From a virus (Duplodnaviria; Heunggongvirae; Uroviricota; Caudoviricetes), in IMG/VR virus record IMGVR_UViG_2675903313_000009: a DNA stretch of 64,000 nt. One strand, 5' to 3'. This document shows positions 1 to 60,649 of this stretch, one piece after another. Every line of letters starts with the position of its first letter. Positions within the stretch are counted from its first letter, which is position 1. A program made the translations under genes and the position numbers. The notes under the pieces were generated by a model that saw only the letters and a program-made list of their open reading frames with translations, was not told the DNA's origin and searched no databases.

Positions 1-1503
1 GTTTCTGGCGCTACGCCGGTAATGCGTGATTCTGAACACTTCTTCTTTGATCTGCCCTCTTTCAGCGAAATGTTGCAGGCATGGACCCGCAGCGGTGCGT
101 TGCAGGAGCAGGTAGCAAACAAAATGCAGGAATGGTTTGAATCCGGCCTGCAACAGTGGGATATCTCCCGCGATGCGCCTTACTTCGGTTTTGAAATTCC
201 GAACGCACCGGGCAAATATTTCTACGTCTGGCTGGACGCACCGATTGGCTACATGGGTTCCTTCAAGAATCTGTGCGACAAACGCGGCGACACTACCAGC
301 TTCGACGAATACTGGAAGAAAGACTCCACCGCCGAGCTGTACCACTTCATCGGTAAAGATATCGTTTACTTCCACAGCCTGTTCTGGCCTGCCATGCTGG
401 AAGGCAGCAACTTCCGCAAGCCGACCAACCTGTTTGTTCATGGCTATGTGACGGTGAACGGCGCAAAGATGTCCAAGTCTCGCGGCACCTTTATTAAAGC
501 CAGCACCTGGCTGAATCATTTTGACGCTGACAGCCTGCGTTACTACTACACTGCGAAACTCTCTTCGCGCATTGATGATATCGATCTCAACCTGGAGGAT
601 TTCGTTCAGCGCGTGAATGCCGATATCGTGAACAAAGTGGTGAATCTGGCGTCCCGTAACGCGGGCTTTATCAATAAGCGTTTTGACGGTGTGCTGGCAG
701 GCGAACTGGCTGACCCGCAACTGTACAAAACCTTTACTGATGCCGCTGAAGTGATTGGTGAAGCATGGGAAAGCCGCGAATTTGGTAAAGCGATTCGTGA
801 AATCATGGCGCTGGCTGATCTGGCTAACCGCTATGTCGATGAACAGGCTCCGTGGGTGGTGGCGAAGCAGGAAGGACGCGATGCCGATCTGCAGGCGATT
901 TGCTCTATGGGCATTAACCTGTTCCGCGTGCTGATGACGTACCTGAAACCGGTACTGCCGAAACTGACTGAACGTGCAGAAGCATTCCTGAATACAGAAC
1001 TGACCTGGGATGGTATCCAGCAACCGCTGCTGGGCCATAAAGTGAATCCGTTCAAGGCACTGTATAACCGTATCGATATGAAACAGGTGGAAGCACTGGT
1101 GGAAGCATCCAAAGAAGAAGTGAAAGCCACAGCTGCACCGGTAACTGGCCCACTGGCTGACGACCCGATTCAGGAAACCATCACCTTTGACGACTTCGCC
1201 AAAGTTGACCTGCGTGTGGCGCTGATTGAAAACGCGGAGTTTGTCGAAGGTTCTGACAAACTGCTGCGCCTGACGCTGGATCTCGGTGGTGAAAAACGCA
1301 ATGTCTTCTCCGGCATTCGTTCTGCTTATCCAGACCCACAGGCACTGATTGGTCGTCACACCATTATGGTGGCTAACCTGGCTCCGCGTAAAATGCGCTT
1401 CGGTATCTCCGAAGGCATGGTGATGGCTGCTGGCCCTGGCGGGAAAGATATCTTCCTGTTAAGCCCGGATGTCGGTGCTAAACCTGGCCACCAGGTTAAG
1501 TAA
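1..1503 (+). CDS. metG: Methionyl-tRNA synthetase, C-terminal portion (5' end outside window); includes C-terminal tRNA-binding domain
   Basis: Frame open from position 1; translation matches enterobacterial MetRS C-terminal region from memory; followed by hairpin terminator. Confidence 0.95.
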
Positions 1504-1549: not shown

Positions 1550-1586
1550 CATATAGACACAACCCCTTCTGACTTTAACAAACCCT

Positions 1587-1601
1587 AAAACAATTTGTTT
1601 T
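1587..1601 (+). promoter_or_regulatory. Early operator motif copy (AAAACAAnTTGTTT palindrome)
   Basis: aaaacaatttgtttt; one of about 10 near-identical palindromes in 5' leaders. Confidence 0.5.
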
Positions 1602-1636
1602 CTACCTTTTGTTAATTGAGATAATAAGCCACATAA

Positions 1637-1652
1637 GAAAACAAATTGTTTC
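1637..1652 (+). promoter_or_regulatory. Early operator motif copy
   Basis: gaaaacaaattgtttc, 12 nt upstream of ATG 1665. Confidence 0.5.
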
Positions 1653-1664
1653 GGAGTGGTTGAA

Positions 1665-1964
1665 ATGTTGAACATTACCCAAGCCTACCAGGTGGCATTG
1701 ATCAGTTCATCTCATACATCAGAGGAAGATGCTCGCCGATTCATGATCGCAAGCAATGAGCTGGATTGGGTTTCACAAATTGATGGCGGTTGTATTGTCC
1801 ACGCCGGGTTACAGGATGATGTCTGGAAAGACGACTTGCGTCGATATGGTATATCCGAAGGCGCGATTGCTAACATTCAGAAAGTACTTGATGTAGGCTT
1901 TGACTCTGTACATTTTGATTGTGGTGCACCGGTCGTTGAAGGGCTAGAGTGCTGGCAATGGTAA
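1665..1964 (+). CDS. Hypothetical early protein, acidic
   Basis: ORF with GGAG RBS; preceded by operator motif. Confidence 0.5.
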   Translation: MLNITQAYQVALISSSHTSEEDARRFMIASNELDWVSQIDGGCIVHAGLQDDVWKDDLRRYGISEGAIANIQKVLDVGFDSVHFDCGAPVVEGLECWQW

Positions 1965-2000
1965 TCCGGCAATCGCTTCATACTAGACAACGGAGAATTT

Positions 2001-2186
2001 ATGCTTAAAGAAGACTCATATCTACTAAAGGCGCTTGAAATGCGTGGCGTTGAACCTACAGTGAAAAACGCTCACGATATCTACCTTCAGTTTTCACCGG
2101 AGCTGAAACGGTTCATAAATCAATACGGGGTTAATGACTCAAGTGTTAAAGCAATGATAGATGATGAATTAGACCATCTCATCTAA
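2001..2186 (+). CDS. Hypothetical small protein
   Basis: 61-aa ORF with GGAG RBS. Confidence 0.4.
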   Translation: MLKEDSYLLKALEMRGVEPTVKNAHDIYLQFSPELKRFINQYGVNDSSVKAMIDDELDHLI

Positions 2187-2338
2187 TCGTTTCCTATGAT
2201 AATGGTTTTCACTTTGAGATTGTTATTTTTCATAGCTAAAGCTGATGTTTGTGGAAGGTGGATTGATAAACGGATGCGTATTTAGGTTATACAAGTGAGA
2301 AAATTGATAATATATAAACGCGATTTTTATGTGATGGA

Positions 2339-2908
2339 ATGGATGTGATGGAAACCCAGAACCAACAAACAAAACCTCTGAATAACATTTATGCGTGGAT
2401 TCTAGCGTTCATGCCTTTCTTCTTTGGAGTATCGCCGGAAGAGTATACCAATTACGCTATTATAATTGGGGGTGTAACTACCATCGGTTTGTTAGTAGCT
2501 GACAGAATGGCTCTATCGGAGTCTGGCTGTGAACCACCTTCAATTCTATGGGGGGTATTCCTCCTGCCTGTCTATCTCTGGAAGCGCGCGACTATTACAA
2601 AAGGCAGCAGAGTGCCATTTATCATAATCGTTGCGTCGCTGGCTTGGATTATCTTCATCGGCATCCCACACAAGGACGAGGTTGCTCTTGAAGAAGCAGC
2701 CTGCCCTCTCGTGACAACTATTCTGAAAGAGAATAACGGTTCGACTGCACCAAAATGTATGAAGGTGACAATAGAGGACAAGGTGACGGATAAGTTCTAT
2801 AGAGCAACGGCTACACTAGACAATGGTAATGACATTAACATTACTCTGGAACTTACCGGCGACAGGAACTTCTACGTCCGTGTTCCAAATGTTTATCTGA
2901 ACAACTAA
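2339..2908 (+). CDS. Predicted membrane protein, unknown function
   Basis: Several hydrophobic segments in N-terminal half; start codon uncertain. Confidence 0.5.
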   Translation: MDVMETQNQQTKPLNNIYAWILAFMPFFFGVSPEEYTNYAIIIGGVTTIGLLVADRMALSESGCEPPSILWGVFLLPVYLWKRATITKGSRVPFIIIVASLAWIIFIGIPHKDEVALEEAACPLVTTILKENNGSTAPKCMKVTIEDKVTDKFYRATATLDNGNDINITLELTGDRNFYVRVPNVYLNN

Positions 2909-2999
2909 CGGTTGTAACTTATTGATAATGGCGGTCACAATTTGATTCTTTTCTATAAGAATCCGTTGATCGCCACTACTCCCCTACCATACCCGCAAT

Positions 3000-3780
3000 C
3001 ACATCCTTAAATATCAATAAGTTATAGTTGTTTATACAATCAAGAAAACAACTGAATAACAGATCAACGAAACATCAACGCTTTCACCCGATTTGGTCTA
3101 AAAAATTGACGTTTTCACACATCACTTCTTATACCCGTAACTCTACGCAGCAGACAGCGCCACAGCGTCCAATTTTCACCACAGACGACCCAACACACTA
3201 CCAATAAAAACACACGCTCAAAATCGCTCCCGTTGCGTTACACAACCATATAAACAACTTATTTTCAGGCATAACAAAACAACTAAATAACACAAATGCC
3301 ATTCCCAAAAACAACCAACCTCTTTATGGCAGGCTACCGAAAAGACCCACCTCTTCTCCCCAGGCTACCGGACAACCAACCTAACTTTCACAGGCAATCC
3401 GAAAACATTCATACGCGCGATACCCACGACACGCCATTACCCAAACAGCGAAGAAACACCAGAATCACTGAAACCCCAACGAAGCCTGTAACCGCAAGGT
3501 TTCTCTCAATCCCAAAAGACACGAAACATAACAATCACGGGAAACGCCATTACCCAATACACGAATAACTACAAAAGCCTTTCACACACTCCAGACAAAC
3601 AACTCAAACACAATAACGAAAGGAATCGCCCACCTGCCATTACTCCATACACGGAGAAGAACAATCACCAAAACGACGAGAACACCCCATAGAAGAACCA
3701 CCGCAAAACGAACGAAACCACAGACACCGACAGAGAAAACAACACACCCAATTCACCAACAGAAATAGTCGCCGTATAGA
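3000..3780 (+). other. CA-rich, G- and T-poor non-coding tract (candidate long non-coding transcript)
   Basis: About 780 bp with strong A+C excess on + strand; only a low-complexity ORF without RBS; internal degenerate repeats (caaccaacct..ggctaccg). Confidence 0.4.
3106..3134 (+). promoter_or_regulatory. Candidate sigma70-type promoter reading into the CA-rich tract
   Basis: TTGACG, 17-nt spacer, TTATAC. Confidence 0.35.
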
Positions 3781-3892
3781 ACGTTCTGGAAGGAGTGAGC
3801 ATTAACGCCTATAGAGAGGTTGAGACAGATAAAACACGAAGAAAACACAACATGTATAGCGAACAAGACAGGTATGTATAAGTGGGGAGGGA

Positions 3893-3916
3893 AGGAGGGG
3901 TGTCGCCTCCTTTTTC
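3893..3916 (+). terminator. Rho-independent terminator at end of CA-rich tract
   Basis: Stem aggagg/cctcct with 7-nt loop then TTTTT. Confidence 0.7.
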
Positions 3917-3980
3917 GTATTTATTCAACTCCTGATTTTCATCCCCCGTAACACCCCTACGGTCAGCCTTCGGTCCATAC

Positions 3981-4120
3981 AGGGAAAAGGCTGCATCCCG
4001 CTACAGAAACGGCTGGGTTGCCTTCGGGGAACGGCTGGAGGTTTTCAGGGAAACGGTCGAGTTGCCTATGTGGATTTCGGGAAAAGGCTCGATGCCGGTT
4101 CAGGAACGGTGGCGTACCGG
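3981..4120. repeat. Direct-repeat array A: about 6 units of ~21 bp with core GGGAAACGGC
   Basis: Units agggaaaaggctg / agaaacggctgg / ggggaacggctgg / agggaaacggtcg / gggaaaaggctcg / aggaacggtgg at about two helical-turn spacing. Confidence 0.6.
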
Positions 4121-4445
4121 TATAGCGAGAGGGAGAGTTGCGGCTACCCACCTGTAATGTGCGGGAAGAAGAGAGGCGCTCACGTGCAGGCAGACTAACT
4201 TACCGTTGGACTCCCTTTGAATGCCCAACTACAGCGTAATTGTGCCAGAGAGTCAGCGGGTCACAATCGATTTCAGTAGGTTTTCGGGGAGAGGATTATT
4301 CTGCTCACCAGCCACTTTCGGCCACTAAATCAGAATAATGTAAAAAGTGTACTCGGTACTAAACCTGAAAACTCACTGCCAAAACCACATTCACCGGAAT
4401 AAAATCCTTTTTCGCCTGTGCGTTATTGCGATAATAACACCATCA

Positions 4446-4466
4446 AGAAAACATGTTGTTTAAGGA
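4446..4466 (+). promoter_or_regulatory. Early operator motif copy
   Basis: agaaaacatgttgtttaagga, immediately upstream of ATG 4474. Confidence 0.5.
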
Positions 4467-4473
4467 TTGCTTT

Positions 4474-4803
4474 ATGTTTGCAAATATCGACATCAACCAA
4501 ATCAAGAAAATGACTCAAAAAGAGTTTGACCAGTTTTATGAGTTAGAAGGTTGGTCTTCCACGCTGATCAATTCGCGCTGGGTGCTTGAGCTGATGACTC
4601 GTGATGATGCTCCTGCTTTGATTATTTGCGACCTGGGTGATGATGCTGACTTTATGGATATGAGCGAATTTTGTGTGGACACATACAACCGCAGCCAGAA
4701 GTACTACTTCACATGCGATAGCGAGAATGACGTTATTTCTAAGGTCTATCTTCACCTTGTCCAGCATTGGGACGTTCAGGAGTTTCTTGAAGTATTCGAG
4801 TAA
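4474..4803 (+). CDS. Hypothetical small acidic protein
   Basis: ORF with AAGGA RBS; Asp/Glu-rich. Confidence 0.5.
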   Translation: MFANIDINQIKKMTQKEFDQFYELEGWSSTLINSRWVLELMTRDDAPALIICDLGDDADFMDMSEFCVDTYNRSQKYYFTCDSENDVISKVYLHLVQHWDVQEFLEVFE

Positions 4804-4928
4804 CCCCAACCAAAGCCAGCATTGCTGGCTTAATTTCTCTATAGCCGCAGGGAAGAACCTGCATATCGCTCATGCACCTGATCAATATGCTTTGTAGCCG
4901 TTTTCTTACTGGTATTATTTACGCCATT

Positions 4929-4950
4929 GAGAAAACAAGTTGTTTACGGA
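4929..4950 (+). promoter_or_regulatory. Early operator motif copy
   Basis: gagaaaacaagttgtttacgga upstream of ATG 4957. Confidence 0.5.
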
Positions 4951-4956
4951 GTTGTA

Positions 4957-5268
4957 ATGAAAAAATCATTGGTTCTTGGTCTGGACAAAGACCAGAAGAA
5001 AAAAGAGAAGCCTGCGCTGGTTGCTCAATTAACTTTGCTGGACATCGTTGCCAATGGAACCTCTATTCGTCTGTTCCGTGAAACAGCGGTGTCTTTCGAT
5101 AAAAACACCTTTACTCGTTATGTAATGAATGTTCGTCGCCAGCGTGGAAAAGGCTGGGTGGCATTTCAAAGAATGTGGCCGGAACATCAGCTCGAACTGG
5201 CTTTGATGGAAGTTAACCGCGTGGCCCAGCAAGAAATTCAGAGAGCATCAGTGATGGCAATAGCCTGA
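4957..5268 (+). CDS. Hypothetical small basic protein
   Basis: ORF with RBS; followed by terminator. Confidence 0.5.
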   Translation: MKKSLVLGLDKDQKKKEKPALVAQLTLLDIVANGTSIRLFRETAVSFDKNTFTRYVMNVRRQRGKGWVAFQRMWPEHQLELALMEVNRVAQQEIQRASVMAIA

Positions 5269-5302
5269 TAATGTGCAAGTGGTAATTAGTCGACCGTACG
5301 AC

Positions 5303-5331
5303 AGCCCCGCCATCCTTACGGGGCTTTTTTT
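5303..5331 (+). terminator. Rho-independent terminator
   Basis: Stem agccccg/cggggct followed by T7. Confidence 0.85.
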
Positions 5332-5336
5332 GTATT

Positions 5337-5352
5337 GTAAGTACATACTTAC
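5337..5352. promoter_or_regulatory. Palindromic TAAGTA..TACTTA motif copy
   Basis: gtaagtacatacttac, perfect palindrome. Confidence 0.4.
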
Positions 5353-5395
5353 GATCATAGAATAGAAAAATAACCAATACACTACGGAGAGTGAA

Positions 5396-5791
5396 ATGAC
5401 CGTTAAACGCGAAAAACTGACAGTTGATGTTTACTATGCCTCTGAAACCGCCGAAGGTAAGAATGTGGCAAAAATCACCGTTGTTACGTACAACACCGAA
5501 ACTGGTGCCGAAGTCCAGGCCAGTACGATCGTGCGTAAAGGTGATGCCTCCGGCGGCGAGTACGCGACTCAATACCAGTCCATTCTCGATGCAACTGACC
5601 CGCTGCTGCTGAAAATCGAGAACTACTTCCGCCAGGTTGATGAAGAGGTGTTTGAAACCATGATGAATATGGTTAACACCGTATTCGCCTCCAGCCTGAA
5701 TACCAACACTACCTGGATTGGTCAGTACGGCCTGCGCATTACCTCTGGCATTCCTGCCGACACCTTAATCCCTGAAAGCGTATTCGCTTAA
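5396..5791 (+). CDS. Hypothetical protein
   Basis: 131-aa ORF with GGAGAG RBS. Confidence 0.5.
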   Translation: MTVKREKLTVDVYYASETAEGKNVAKITVVTYNTETGAEVQASTIVRKGDASGGEYATQYQSILDATDPLLLKIENYFRQVDEEVFETMMNMVNTVFASSLNTNTTWIGQYGLRITSGIPADTLIPESVFA

Positions 5792-5835
5792 TCCTCTTTA
5801 AATGGCGCGTAAACCGCGCCATTTTATTAAGCCCG

Positions 5836-5856
5836 ATAACAATTTGTTTTCTGCCT
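5836..5856 (+). promoter_or_regulatory. Early operator motif copy
   Basis: gataacaatttgttttctgcc. Confidence 0.5.
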
Positions 5857-5908
5857 TATCTGATTTGTGAAAATGATTTCACTGAAGCAAGTTAATAAGG
5901 AAACCATC

Positions 5909-6283
5909 ATGGGACTTGATATCTATATCGAGACACAGCCTAAAAACGATCTGAATAACGAGGCATCCAGAAAGCAGGTTGCTTACTTCCGTAAGTTCAA
6001 TGCGCTCGTTGGGTGGATGGAGCGCAACGTAGGTGAAGTCGAAAATTGTGAGCTTTTAGAATTAACGATGAATGACATTTGTTTTCTGAAGGCTCATTTG
6101 ATGCACATAAACGAAAGTAATTGCGAAGAGTACTTGCCTACCCGGGAAGGTTTTTTCTTCGGCAGTCAGGAGTACGATGAAGGTTACTGGCATGATGTGG
6201 GGCAGTTGAAAGAGCTTGTGGAAGATCTGATTAAGAACCACGACTTTCACAATAACAGACTGACCTTCTGCGCCTGGTGGTAA
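5909..6283 (+). CDS. Hypothetical acidic protein
   Basis: ORF with TAAGGAAA RBS; start chosen at ATG 5909 rather than upstream GTG. Confidence 0.5.
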   Translation: MGLDIYIETQPKNDLNNEASRKQVAYFRKFNALVGWMERNVGEVENCELLELTMNDICFLKAHLMHINESNCEEYLPTREGFFFGSQEYDEGYWHDVGQLKELVEDLIKNHDFHNNRLTFCAWW

Positions 6284-6458: not shown

Positions 6459-6483
6459 AAATGACCATCCTGTTTCCCGCAGG

Positions 6484-6560
6484 CTAAAAACACCAACCTC
6501 TTACCTCCAGGCAACCGACAAACCCACCTGTTCCCGTCCGGCTACCGCAACTTTCCACTT
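6484..6560 (+). repeat. Second copy of CA-rich element (about 75% similar to 3312..3395)
   Basis: caccaacctctt..ggctaccg..ctttccac shared with the large CA-rich tract. Confidence 0.45.
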
Positions 6561-6596
6561 TGACGCCTTATTCGTACAACGATAATTAACACCAAC

Positions 6597-6620
6597 AAGA
6601 AAACAATTTGTTATTTACGA
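6597..6620 (+). promoter_or_regulatory. Early operator motif copy
   Basis: caagaaaacaatttgttatttacga upstream of ATG 6634. Confidence 0.5.
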
Positions 6621-6633
6621 TAAGGAATTAATC

Positions 6634-7116
6634 ATGAATTTTATCGCTACTGTAAACGCACCCGCACATGGCAATATCGCTGTAACGTTCTCTGACATTG
6701 AAAAACGAGTACTTGGTGCATGGCGCGACAATGAGACGGTAGAACTGTCAGCACAAGAAAAATGCATTATTGCACGCGACATCATTGGCAATCGTCGTTA
6801 CTCGCGGGTATTTGAGAAAGCGTATGTGGTAAATTCTGGATTCGGAACGTTCGTCTTTCCGGTGCGCTCCGGGCGATTCTGCCAGTCCAAGCTGATTGAG
6901 TTCGCTACGCAGATTTCTGTCTGGATTAAAACTCAATCGTCGTTCAAATTTTCCGACGATGAAGCAGTATCGCAGGGGATGCGGATCGCCAACAATGCGA
7001 TTAAATGCAAAAACATTACGTATACCGCTGGCGTTGATACATGGAAACTGTTTTGCGCTAACTTTATGCTGAATGTATACGCAAGCAACCGCATCCACAT
7101 CCTTGATGGCGTGTAA
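6634..7116 (+). CDS. Hypothetical protein
   Basis: 160-aa ORF with TAAGGAA RBS. Confidence 0.55.
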   Translation: MNFIATVNAPAHGNIAVTFSDIEKRVLGAWRDNETVELSAQEKCIIARDIIGNRRYSRVFEKAYVVNSGFGTFVFPVRSGRFCQSKLIEFATQISVWIKTQSSFKFSDDEAVSQGMRIANNAIKCKNITYTAGVDTWKLFCANFMLNVYASNRIHILDGV

Positions 7117-16796: not shown

Positions 16797-16815
16797 AGAA
16801 AACAAGTTGGTTAGC
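16797..16815 (+). promoter_or_regulatory. Early operator motif copy (degenerate)
   Basis: cagaaaacaagttggttagc. Confidence 0.4.
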
Positions 16816-16832
16816 AGATGCAGTAAACAAGT

Positions 16833-16850
16833 TGTTTTAGAGCGCATGGA
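16833..16850 (+). promoter_or_regulatory. Early operator motif copy upstream of terminase small subunit
   Basis: gtaaacaagttgttttag. Confidence 0.45.
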
Positions 16851-47325: not shown

Positions 47326-47348
47326 AAGAAAACAAGTTGTTTCAGACG
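47326..47348 (+). promoter_or_regulatory. Early operator motif copy upstream of parA-like gene
   Basis: taagaaaacaagttgtttcagacg. Confidence 0.5.
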
Positions 47349-51353: not shown

Positions 51354-51378
51354 TAGAAAACAATTTGTTTAAAAAACA
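51354..51378 (+). promoter_or_regulatory. Early operator motif copy upstream of helicase
   Basis: ctagaaaacaatttgtttaaaaaac. Confidence 0.5.
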
Positions 51379-60125: not shown

Positions 60126-60200
60126 GATGGTGTAGCTCAGCGGTAGAGCAGTTGGCTGTTAACCAACTGGTCGGTGGTTCGAATCCACCCACCATCGCCA
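60126..60200 (+). tRNA. tRNA-Asn (anticodon GUU)
   Basis: Cloverleaf folds by hand; anticodon loop CUGUUAA; CCA encoded; not the E. coli Asn tRNA sequence. Confidence 0.85.
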
Positions 60201-60205
60201 ATTTA

Positions 60206-60292
60206 GGGGAGTTAGTCCGTAGAGGTAGCGGTGTAGACTGTAAATCTACTGTCATGGCGACTCGGGTGGTTCGACTCCATCACTCCCCACCA
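60206..60292 (+). tRNA. tRNA-Tyr (anticodon GUA), long variable arm
   Basis: Anticodon arm gtaga-CUGUAAA-tctac; acceptor ggggagt/actcccc; CCA encoded. Confidence 0.75.
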
Positions 60293-60296
60293 AATT

Positions 60297-60372
60297 GCCG
60301 GTTTAGCTCAGTTGGTAGAGCAGTCGCTTTGTAAGCGAATGGCCAGCGGTTCAAGTCCGTTAACCGGCACCA
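60297..60372 (+). tRNA. tRNA-Thr (anticodon UGU; assignment tentative)
   Basis: Acceptor gccggtt/aaccggc; anticodon loop UUUGUAA with one mismatch in stem. Confidence 0.65.
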
Positions 60373-60462
60373 ACACAACAGGTAAGAGCATTGGGCGAAT
60401 CGGCGATACTGACCCACAAGGCCGTAAATCGATAGAGTCAGACCAGTGCTCTTACCGTTGTG
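60373..60462 (+). other. Long stem-loop H2 directly after tRNA-Thr
   Basis: acacaacaggtaagagcattgg pairs with ccagtgctcttaccgttgtg. Confidence 0.45.
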
Positions 60463-60562
60463 ATGAATGCACAGGCTGATGTGCCGCAACTACAGTAGTG
60501 CGCGCTTTGCGGGGCTTGCTACAACCCTGTGTCGGAGTTCAGTACCGACCATCACAATAGCT

Positions 60563-60649
60563 GGAGAGTAGGGAGCATGGTGCTCAAGCGGTCTTGAAAA
60601 CCGTTCCATTGTGCAAACGATGATGGTTCGATTCCATTACTCTCCGCCA
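60563..60649 (+). tRNA. tRNA-Ser (anticodon UGA), long variable arm
   Basis: Acceptor ggagagt/actctcc; anticodon loop CUUGAAA; CCA encoded. Confidence 0.8.

Follow-up and report, generated by a model that had tools for sequence, protein, structure and literature searches.

The first seven kilobases of a 64,000-nucleotide stretch of tailed-phage DNA (IMG/VR record IMGVR_UViG_2675903313_000009, here called the window), which belongs to an SSU5-type Escherichia coli phage-plasmid, hold a block of small genes at 1.6-7.1 kb, all on the + strand. We read this block as a row of mostly single-gene cassettes, most of which would carry a sigma-70-like promoter bearing the palindrome GAAAACAANTTGTT in its start region. 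Three such cassettes appear to encode three unrelated small acidic cytoplasmic proteins, named here A (1665..1964), B (4474..4803) and C (5909..6283). All three are real genes under constraint, and their acidity is within the range of a known DNA mimic. The best explanation for A, B and C is interference with the host during entry and establishment, a reading that we hold tentatively; the block would then correspond, on a phage-plasmid, to the anti-defence islands that plasmids carry in their leading regions. We infer the expression timing, targets and mode of action of the three proteins.

A, B and C are considered real genes because they match PHROG families strongly (E 1e-49 to 1e-87, every family being labelled as of unknown function), have full-length homologues that reach down to 25-30% identity, and show a low ratio of nonsynonymous to synonymous polymorphism (pN/pS 0.09-0.20 against close alleles), indicative of purifying selection. 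Coding sequences of equal length (300, 330 and 375 nt) are annotated by RefSeq and GenBank in near-identical records, and each start is preceded by a Shine-Dalgarno-like sequence. The original prediction had picked out these three open reading frames (ORFs) as short, acidic candidates for anti-restriction or anti-defence factors. They are present exactly where it placed them, and their computed isoelectric points (pI) bear out the acidity. A has 99 amino acids, a pI of 4.32, an aspartate plus glutamate (D+E) content of 16.2% and a net charge of -10; the corresponding values are 109 amino acids, 4.19, 20.2% and -14 for B, and 124 amino acids, 4.75, 17.7% and -11 for C. In a crude set of 77 ORFs from the window, about 12% have a pI below 4.8 and only A and B fall below 4.4, making them the two most acidic products of the window. 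The acidity of the three proteins lies in the range of one known DNA mimic, as a bona fide ArdA that adjoins a C homologue has a pI of 4.23 and a D+E content of 18.9%. Charge conservation, computed at the sequence level, is also found among homologues, with a median pI of 4.57 and a net charge of -11 for the C family (54 sequences) and net charges of -14 to -15 for the relatives of B at 25-36% identity. The selection of these three genes was partly arbitrary; C is surpassed in acidity by the omitted product of 5396..5791 (pI 4.48), and that of 2001..2186 (pI 4.88) is acidic as well. A common origin of A, B and C was rejected, with an hhalign probability of ~0.2% in all three pairings.

The acidity might be incidental if A, B and C are common accessory genes that serve the element as a plasmid (in maintenance, lysogenic conversion or exclusion) and have no role against host factors. 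Acidic pI values are common among soluble bacterial proteins, all database labels for the proteins read 'hypothetical', and the surroundings of B beyond its own block are uninformative. We nevertheless find this reading improbable in view of the rank of A and B as the two most acidic products, the charge kept at 25-36% identity, and the specific gene context of A and C.

With up to two mismatches allowed and each palindromic site counted on both strands, the window contains 23 matches to the palindrome GAAAACAANTTGTT, where 4.1 would be expected. In the block, it sits 8-11 nt downstream of -10-like hexamers (GATAAT or TATTAT) within a conserved unit of ~55 nt, at a distance of 14-40 nt upstream of the starts of A, B, 4957..5268 and 6634..7116, and ~58 nt upstream of that of C. 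This cassette architecture is common to A, B and C, and A and B retain it in L019, a diverged element of 108 kb. The counterpart proteins of L019 share only 29-41% identity, yet the motif fronts the equivalent small genes there. Because the motif is kept before equivalent genes despite the divergence of the proteins, a functional DNA operator is strongly suggested; an RNA hairpin would be impossible with a 5-bp stem and a 1-nt loop. The palindrome is probably a genome-wide repressor site, the operator of the element's master repressor. The C1 operators of P1 are comparable genome-wide repressor sites, and no paper on an SSU5 operator was found in the literature. The cassettes would probably be silent while the element's repressor is present and would come on after entry of the DNA into a cell that lacks the repressor or upon induction of the prophage, because the palindrome sits in the promoter start regions.

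The block had been described as "operator-controlled" and "early". The operator is borne out by the frequency of the motif, its position at promoters and its retention in L019. The second word is not borne out, because the terminase operon (16878, the gene ahead of the large terminase), 47378 (an AAA ATPase) and 51390 (a DnaB-like gene) have the motif in front of them too, and it hence marks no "early" class. This distribution at replication and packaging genes suggests one general lytic or establishment regulon, which is a point for another explanation. A, B and C could be host-takeover or self-regulatory proteins unrelated to immunity, such as anti-repressors of the P1 Coi kind, inhibitors of nucleoid proteins (HU or H-NS, for instance), or factors that assist replication, recombination or repair, made from the same repressor-gated promoters. 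We regard this as rather unlikely and return to it with the gene context of A and C.

No homology had been recognised for any of the three products. This is incorrect for A and C; B is nearly an orphan. A matches the C-terminal domain of DUF5983 (Pfam PF19419) almost from end to end (profile positions 3-90 of 90), with an E value of 7.5e-11 and a score of 42.6 bits where the cutoff is 27. Eleven residues precede this domain, and the N-terminal domain DUF5983_N (PF25638) is absent. An identification of A with YeeW of E. coli K-12 was rejected, as YeeW consists of the DUF5983_N domain only and has no BLASTP similarity to A. The yeeW gene follows cbtA in the CP4-44 island; cbtA is not found near A in the window. 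A tblastn search placed relatives of A in 2301 plasmid records, of which 1663 are typed as conjugative and come mainly from Klebsiella. On a pOXA-48-type IncL/M plasmid, the homologue of A (PF19419, E 1.5e-22) comes directly after ssb and two ORFs from the mobA/relaxase region, with an Antirestrict gene (KlcA/ArdB, PF03230) three genes upstream and DUF1380, an Hha-like gene and DUF4942 further along. On Klebsiella IncFIB plasmids it comes after DUF4942, and the relatives of A on both plasmid types match PF19419.

In a published catalogue of the 100 largest families with enrichment in plasmid leading regions, a DUF5983 family is number 72 (false discovery rate p 6.6e-199, n = 618), at a median position of 2 from the origin of transfer (oriT) on the T-strand, and is marked there as uncharacterised and without structural match to known anti-CRISPR or anti-restriction proteins (Samuel et al. 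2024, PMC11541004). Such an enrichment fits the protection of entering DNA better than a lytic takeover, and A and C repeatedly adjoin ArdA, ArdB or ArdC-type genes and ssb in conjugative elements, which again argues against the takeover explanation. A point for that explanation is that DUF5983 also occurs in chromosomal islands, where it follows the cbtA toxin gene.

C belongs to a widespread family without a Pfam entry. We found 78 relatives down to ~30% identity, and a scan of one genome per species added 98 more from Proteobacteria, Bacillota, Actinobacteria and Bacteroidota, as well as from contigs binned to Methanobacteriaceae and other archaea. The family spans these four bacterial phyla, jumbo phages and possibly archaeal elements. 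One contig binned to a 'Bacillota' metagenome-assembled genome (L021, JAEWTL010000044.1) encodes a protein 98% identical to C of the window; its placement is probably a mis-binning, and the members from archaeal genomes of this kind call for similar caution. When 54 members were scanned against Pfam, only scattered chance matches were obtained, and a precomputed Pfam tag on one relative was not reproduced. The family has the signature MGLD / GYFRKxN / LPTxEGFFFGSxEYDxxY / C-terminal W-W/Y, and the invariant or near-invariant residues (M1 G2 L3 D4, Y26 F27 R28 K29, N31, P77 T78, G81 F82 F83 F84 G85 S86, Y89 D90 Y93 D96) form a constellation that is kept between members of different phyla with 25-45% identity. 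Since all members begin with MGLD, the start of C at 5909 is confirmed.

The predicted model of C (predicted local distance difference test score, pLDDT, 93.8; predicted template modelling score, pTM, 0.84) has a four-stranded sheet and four helices, with the GFFFGS motif in a loop. Its best neighbours among solved structures include E. coli YfbM (1RYL; DUF1877) and, at rank 4, DMP12 (PDB 3W1O). DMP12 is a DNA mimic from Neisseria that targets HU and not a defence system (PMC3643605), a structural neighbour that speaks for the takeover explanation.

The conservation of C, as far as the alignment tells, looks more like that of a pocket or a core than that of a DNA-like surface. An enzymatic or ligand-binding role for C is therefore kept in consideration because of this conserved pocket-like constellation. 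In its fuller form, C, and perhaps A, would be a small enzyme or ligand-binding protein (a nucleotide-signal sponge or a metal-dependent activity) whose acidity is secondary. The constellation holds across phyla, and the most conserved stretch of C is a loop rather than a helix face. On the side of A, the residues H17, E20, E21, D22, H83 and D85 are retained at 29% identity, the C-terminus reads CWQW, and another study placed a DUF5983 protein among the glyoxalase/bleomycin-resistance folds, two Trp, one Arg and one Asp forming its putative site for a small molecule. Set against this are the lack of a match to any enzyme or known sponge family and the possibility that the conserved aromatics merely build a hydrophobic core, and we judge the idea clearly unlikely. 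For A, with its DUF5983 C-terminal domain, a mechanism other than DNA mimicry, possibly ligand binding, is more likely, and a DNA-mimic mechanism is doubtful.

In conjugative elements, homologues of C adjoin anti-restriction genes. One E. coli integrative and conjugative element (ICE) has the gene order integrase – … – C – 63-aa gene – ArdA – … – LPD29 – DUF1281 – PilI, and in a second ICE it is C – Antirestrict – MPTase-PolyVal gene – … – TraI_2 relaxase, MPTase-PolyVal being a zincin-like metallopeptidase domain that occurs in ArdC-type proteins. C is also found together with ParB on plasmid-like contigs, and near RadC, ssb, a thermonuclease and toxin-antitoxin pairs on Gram-positive plasmids. 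When 150 neighbours from 48 non-redundant genomic loci were tallied, the Pfam families that recurred were DNA ligase (3), DUF932 (2), the ArdC N-domain with a peptidase domain (2) and dUTPase (2), with Antirestrict seen once.

B is nearly an orphan, confined to SSU5-type elements of E. coli and Shigella. A word-indexed search of 5.8 billion proteins returned close relatives only, and a HMMER search of 1.84 billion representative proteins added three distant ones with 25-36% identity, all of them lacking a Pfam domain. The gene is present in four Escherichia phage records and in 229 plasmid records, all from E. coli or Shigella except for an uncultured record and a diverged copy from Enterobacter. 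The Klebsiella relatives with a C gene lack it. A 33% relative lies in L019, in a shuffled block with homologues of 4957, 5396, A and 6634. An AlphaFold2 model of B from five sequences (pLDDT 83.4) shows a beta-meander with helices. The rank-1 neighbour of this model among solved structures is the anti-CRISPR protein AcrIIA13 (PDB 7ENI); the resemblance is weak and is no evidence of membership. AcrIIA13 mimics the duplex of the protospacer-adjacent motif, and in proteins of its type an acidic surface blocks the pocket of SauCas9 for this duplex. A match of B to potato multicystatin (E 2e-5) was rejected because it adds up three weak alignments to repeats, whose per-domain E values are 8-260.

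Host interference is proposed for A, B and C because the families of A and C are typical of establishment and anti-defence islands and because the block has a umuD-like gene at its boundary, matching Samuel et al. The products of the block would act by binding, and thereby inactivating, host proteins that endanger the DNA on arrival, be it through restriction, other nucleic-acid-directed defences, recombination or SOS functions. For B and C, the favoured mechanism would be an acidic surface that competitively inhibits a DNA-binding protein; such DNA mimicry is plausible for these two. The presence of the DNA mimics AcrIIA13 and DMP12 among the structural neighbours of B and C is a further point for the reading. 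The anti-defence function first suggested for the three proteins hence gains from the gene context of the A and C families, and it loses from the lack of a match to known anti-defence models.

A number of observations weigh against this explanation. No match of A, B or C was found to ArdA (PF07275), ArdB/KlcA (PF03230), ArdC (PF08401) or Ocr in Pfam at E <= 1, nor to known anti-restriction, anti-CRISPR or other anti-defence models in Pfam, NCBIfam and PHROGs. A, B, C, the C-family profile, 5396..5791 and 2001..2186 gave no sequence or profile match to solved structures. The D+E contents of A (16%) and C (18%) are low for classical mimics, that of B being 20%; classical DNA mimics have a higher content than A and C. 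The DUF5983 protein mentioned above was assigned a glyoxalase-like fold and not that of a DNA mimic, and in C it is aromatic residues, glycines and basic residues that are most strongly conserved, not a stripe of acidic ones. The fold neighbours of C in BFVD are all uncharacterised phage proteins, some of them from jumbo phages. Phages of 138-165 kb place C in DNA-metabolism clusters, beside DNA ligase (once abutting), dUTPase, helicase and ribonucleotide reductase, as would be expected of a takeover protein. Most neighbours of C homologues carry no annotation, and the uninformative surroundings of B count here as well. Finally, the predicted operator also fronts late and replication genes and so does not set the block apart in timing.

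A broader proposal is that SSU5-type phage-plasmids carry the phage-side equivalent of a leading-region anti-defence island, gated by a repressor operator and not by single-stranded DNA promoters, in which C founds a very widespread anti-defence or establishment family with a new mechanism (a variant of DNA mimicry or a ligand sponge) and B is an E. coli-specific inhibitor. Taken as a whole, we consider this proposal unlikely. The cataloguing of DUF5983 as a leading-region family and the occurrence of candidate anti-defence cassettes in mobile elements are already known. The parallel between the block and leading-region islands, the conserved operator and the breadth of the Pfam-less C family are new; our literature search returned nothing on the accession numbers of the proteins. 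If the block is an anti-defence and establishment kit, the counter-defence repertoires of phages and plasmids would be linked through DUF5983 and the C family, operator-gated single-gene cassettes would provide a simple genomic rule for finding candidates, and C, as a large unannotated family, and A, as a member of a leading-region-enriched DUF, would be nominated for direct testing. Should the proteins lack such activity, they would serve as a warning that acidity and position are weak evidence.

The window is assigned to an SSU5-type E. coli phage-plasmid because of database matches and the annotation of related records. Its first 8 kb is 98% identical to E. coli plasmids of ~100-120 kb (pTW10722_119 and others) and also matches three phages, Cyrano, CMS-2020a and PhiR41_1; Klebsiella phage-plasmids and Salmonella phage SSU5 match it more weakly. 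The related records annotate a head-tail module, ParB-like proteins, a DnaB-like helicase, a primase and tRNAs. Clinical E. coli and Klebsiella commonly carry SSU5-type phage-plasmids, which are mobile both as phages and as plasmids. The window begins inside metG, as positions 22..1503 are the 3' part of the element's own copy. This phage-plasmid carries a full-length methionyl-tRNA synthetase gene (metG) that adjoins apbC and a humD/umuD-like gene, and in relatives of the window apbC and humD lie directly upstream. At the other end, a cluster of three tRNA genes and a nearby at-threshold match to a tRNA-Sec model are located at 60126-60646. The features of the block and the sites of the palindrome are collected in Table 1.

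Table 1. Positions of genes, promoter units, repeats and palindrome sites in the window.
Feature	Coordinates	Strand	Remarks
Promoter region of A	1574..1653	+	two palindrome copies (1586-1602, 1637-1653) flanking a -10-like GATAAT
Protein A gene	1665..1964	+	DUF5983 C-terminal domain only; phrog_5003; pN/pS ~0.1
Gene of 61-aa mildly acidic protein	2001..2186	+	phrog_11467
Gene of 189-aa hydrophobic, probably membrane, protein	2339..2908	+	phrog_12486; grand average of hydropathy (GRAVY) +0.22
Direct-repeat array 1	3314..3398	+	three ~30-nt repeats, ACC[AC]ACCT-N8-CAGGC[TA]AC
Promoter-like unit and palindrome upstream of B	4406..4460	+	
Protein B gene	4474..4803	+	near-orphan
Promoter-like unit and palindrome upstream of 4957..5268	4890..4947	+	
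Gene of 103-aa basic protein	4957..5268	+	pI 10.3; phrog_5125; 37% homologue in L019
Gene of 131-aa acidic protein	5396..5791	+	phrog_2473; 41% homologue in L019; pN/pS ~0.1
Palindrome upstream of C	5835..5851	.	
Protein C gene	5909..6283	+	widespread family without Pfam entry
Direct-repeat array 2	6464..6545	+	three ~30-nt repeats, same family as 3314-3398
Promoter-like unit and palindrome upstream of 6634..7116	6558..6615	+	TTGACG…GATAAT
Gene of 160-aa basic protein	6634..7116	+	last + strand gene of the block; phrog_1641; 30% homologue in L019
Sites of GAAAACAANTTGTT	1586-1653, 3253-3266, 4447-4460, 4931-4947, 5835-5851, 6599-6615, 16798-16839, 47328-47344, 51356-51372		

Among the remaining genes of the block, 5396..5791 is the best conserved + strand cassette gene in L019 and is under purifying selection. 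The product of 2001..2186 was tried as a T7 gp5.9-like RecBCD inhibitor (PF25708) and rejected, with 16.9 bits against a 24.5-bit cutoff and an E value of 0.006 over 17 aligned residues; a search of the PDB gave no match of this protein to gp5.9. NCBIfam and PADLOC yielded no significant match for any protein of the block, and from Pfam the only one was DUF5983 for A. The ~30-nt repeat motif of the two arrays has 17 matches against 3.5 expected and is kept in Cyrano and pTW10722 and partly in L019; these arrays may be protein-binding sites. Between 2908 and 4453, ~1.5 kb is free of convincing ORFs and the + strand is rich in A and C (AT skew +0.18, GC skew -0.14). The gene content of this interval differs among relatives, with three coding sequences in Cyrano and one of 216 nt in pTW10722, and Rfam gave no match in the block, this interval included. 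A fragment of the block flanked by insertion sequence (IS) elements is held by L132 (NZ_CP067400.1), an unrelated mobilizable IncFIB plasmid. The fragment comprises a DUF1380 gene, then an A-like gene (48%), an 82% homologue of 2339..2908, and B (96%); the cassettes therefore move between replicons.

The block can be compared with the leading-region anti-defence islands described by Samuel et al. (2024, Nature, PMC11541004), for which umuCD homologues are a common boundary. Like those islands, it is a row of small co-oriented genes that includes DUF5983, and it has a umuD-like gene at one boundary (humD; umuC in L019). The relative L019 holds a DUF4942 methyltransferase-like gene and umuC upstream, and homologues of C sit in such islands beside ArdA, ArdB or ArdC-type genes. 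Unlike the islands, which adjoin oriT, the block lies on a phage-plasmid that is typed as non-mobilizable and has no relaxase or oriT annotated in the window or in close relatives, and searches of Pfam and PHROG found no known anti-defence gene in it. Leading-region islands use single-stranded DNA (Frpo-type) promoters, whereas the block is apparently gated by a palindromic operator of double-stranded DNA. With regard to the individual proteins, A matches the whole DUF5983 domain (PF19419) above the curated cutoff and differs from the YeeW type in the missing DUF5983_N and in not being adjacent to cbtA/cbeA. A, B and C differ from mimics of the ArdA/Ocr type, B and C in their predicted folds and all three in giving no Pfam match to ArdA, Antirestrict, Ocr or ArdC; they are similar to these mimics in size class, in net charge per residue and in their proposed place in a cassette that would be expressed on entry.

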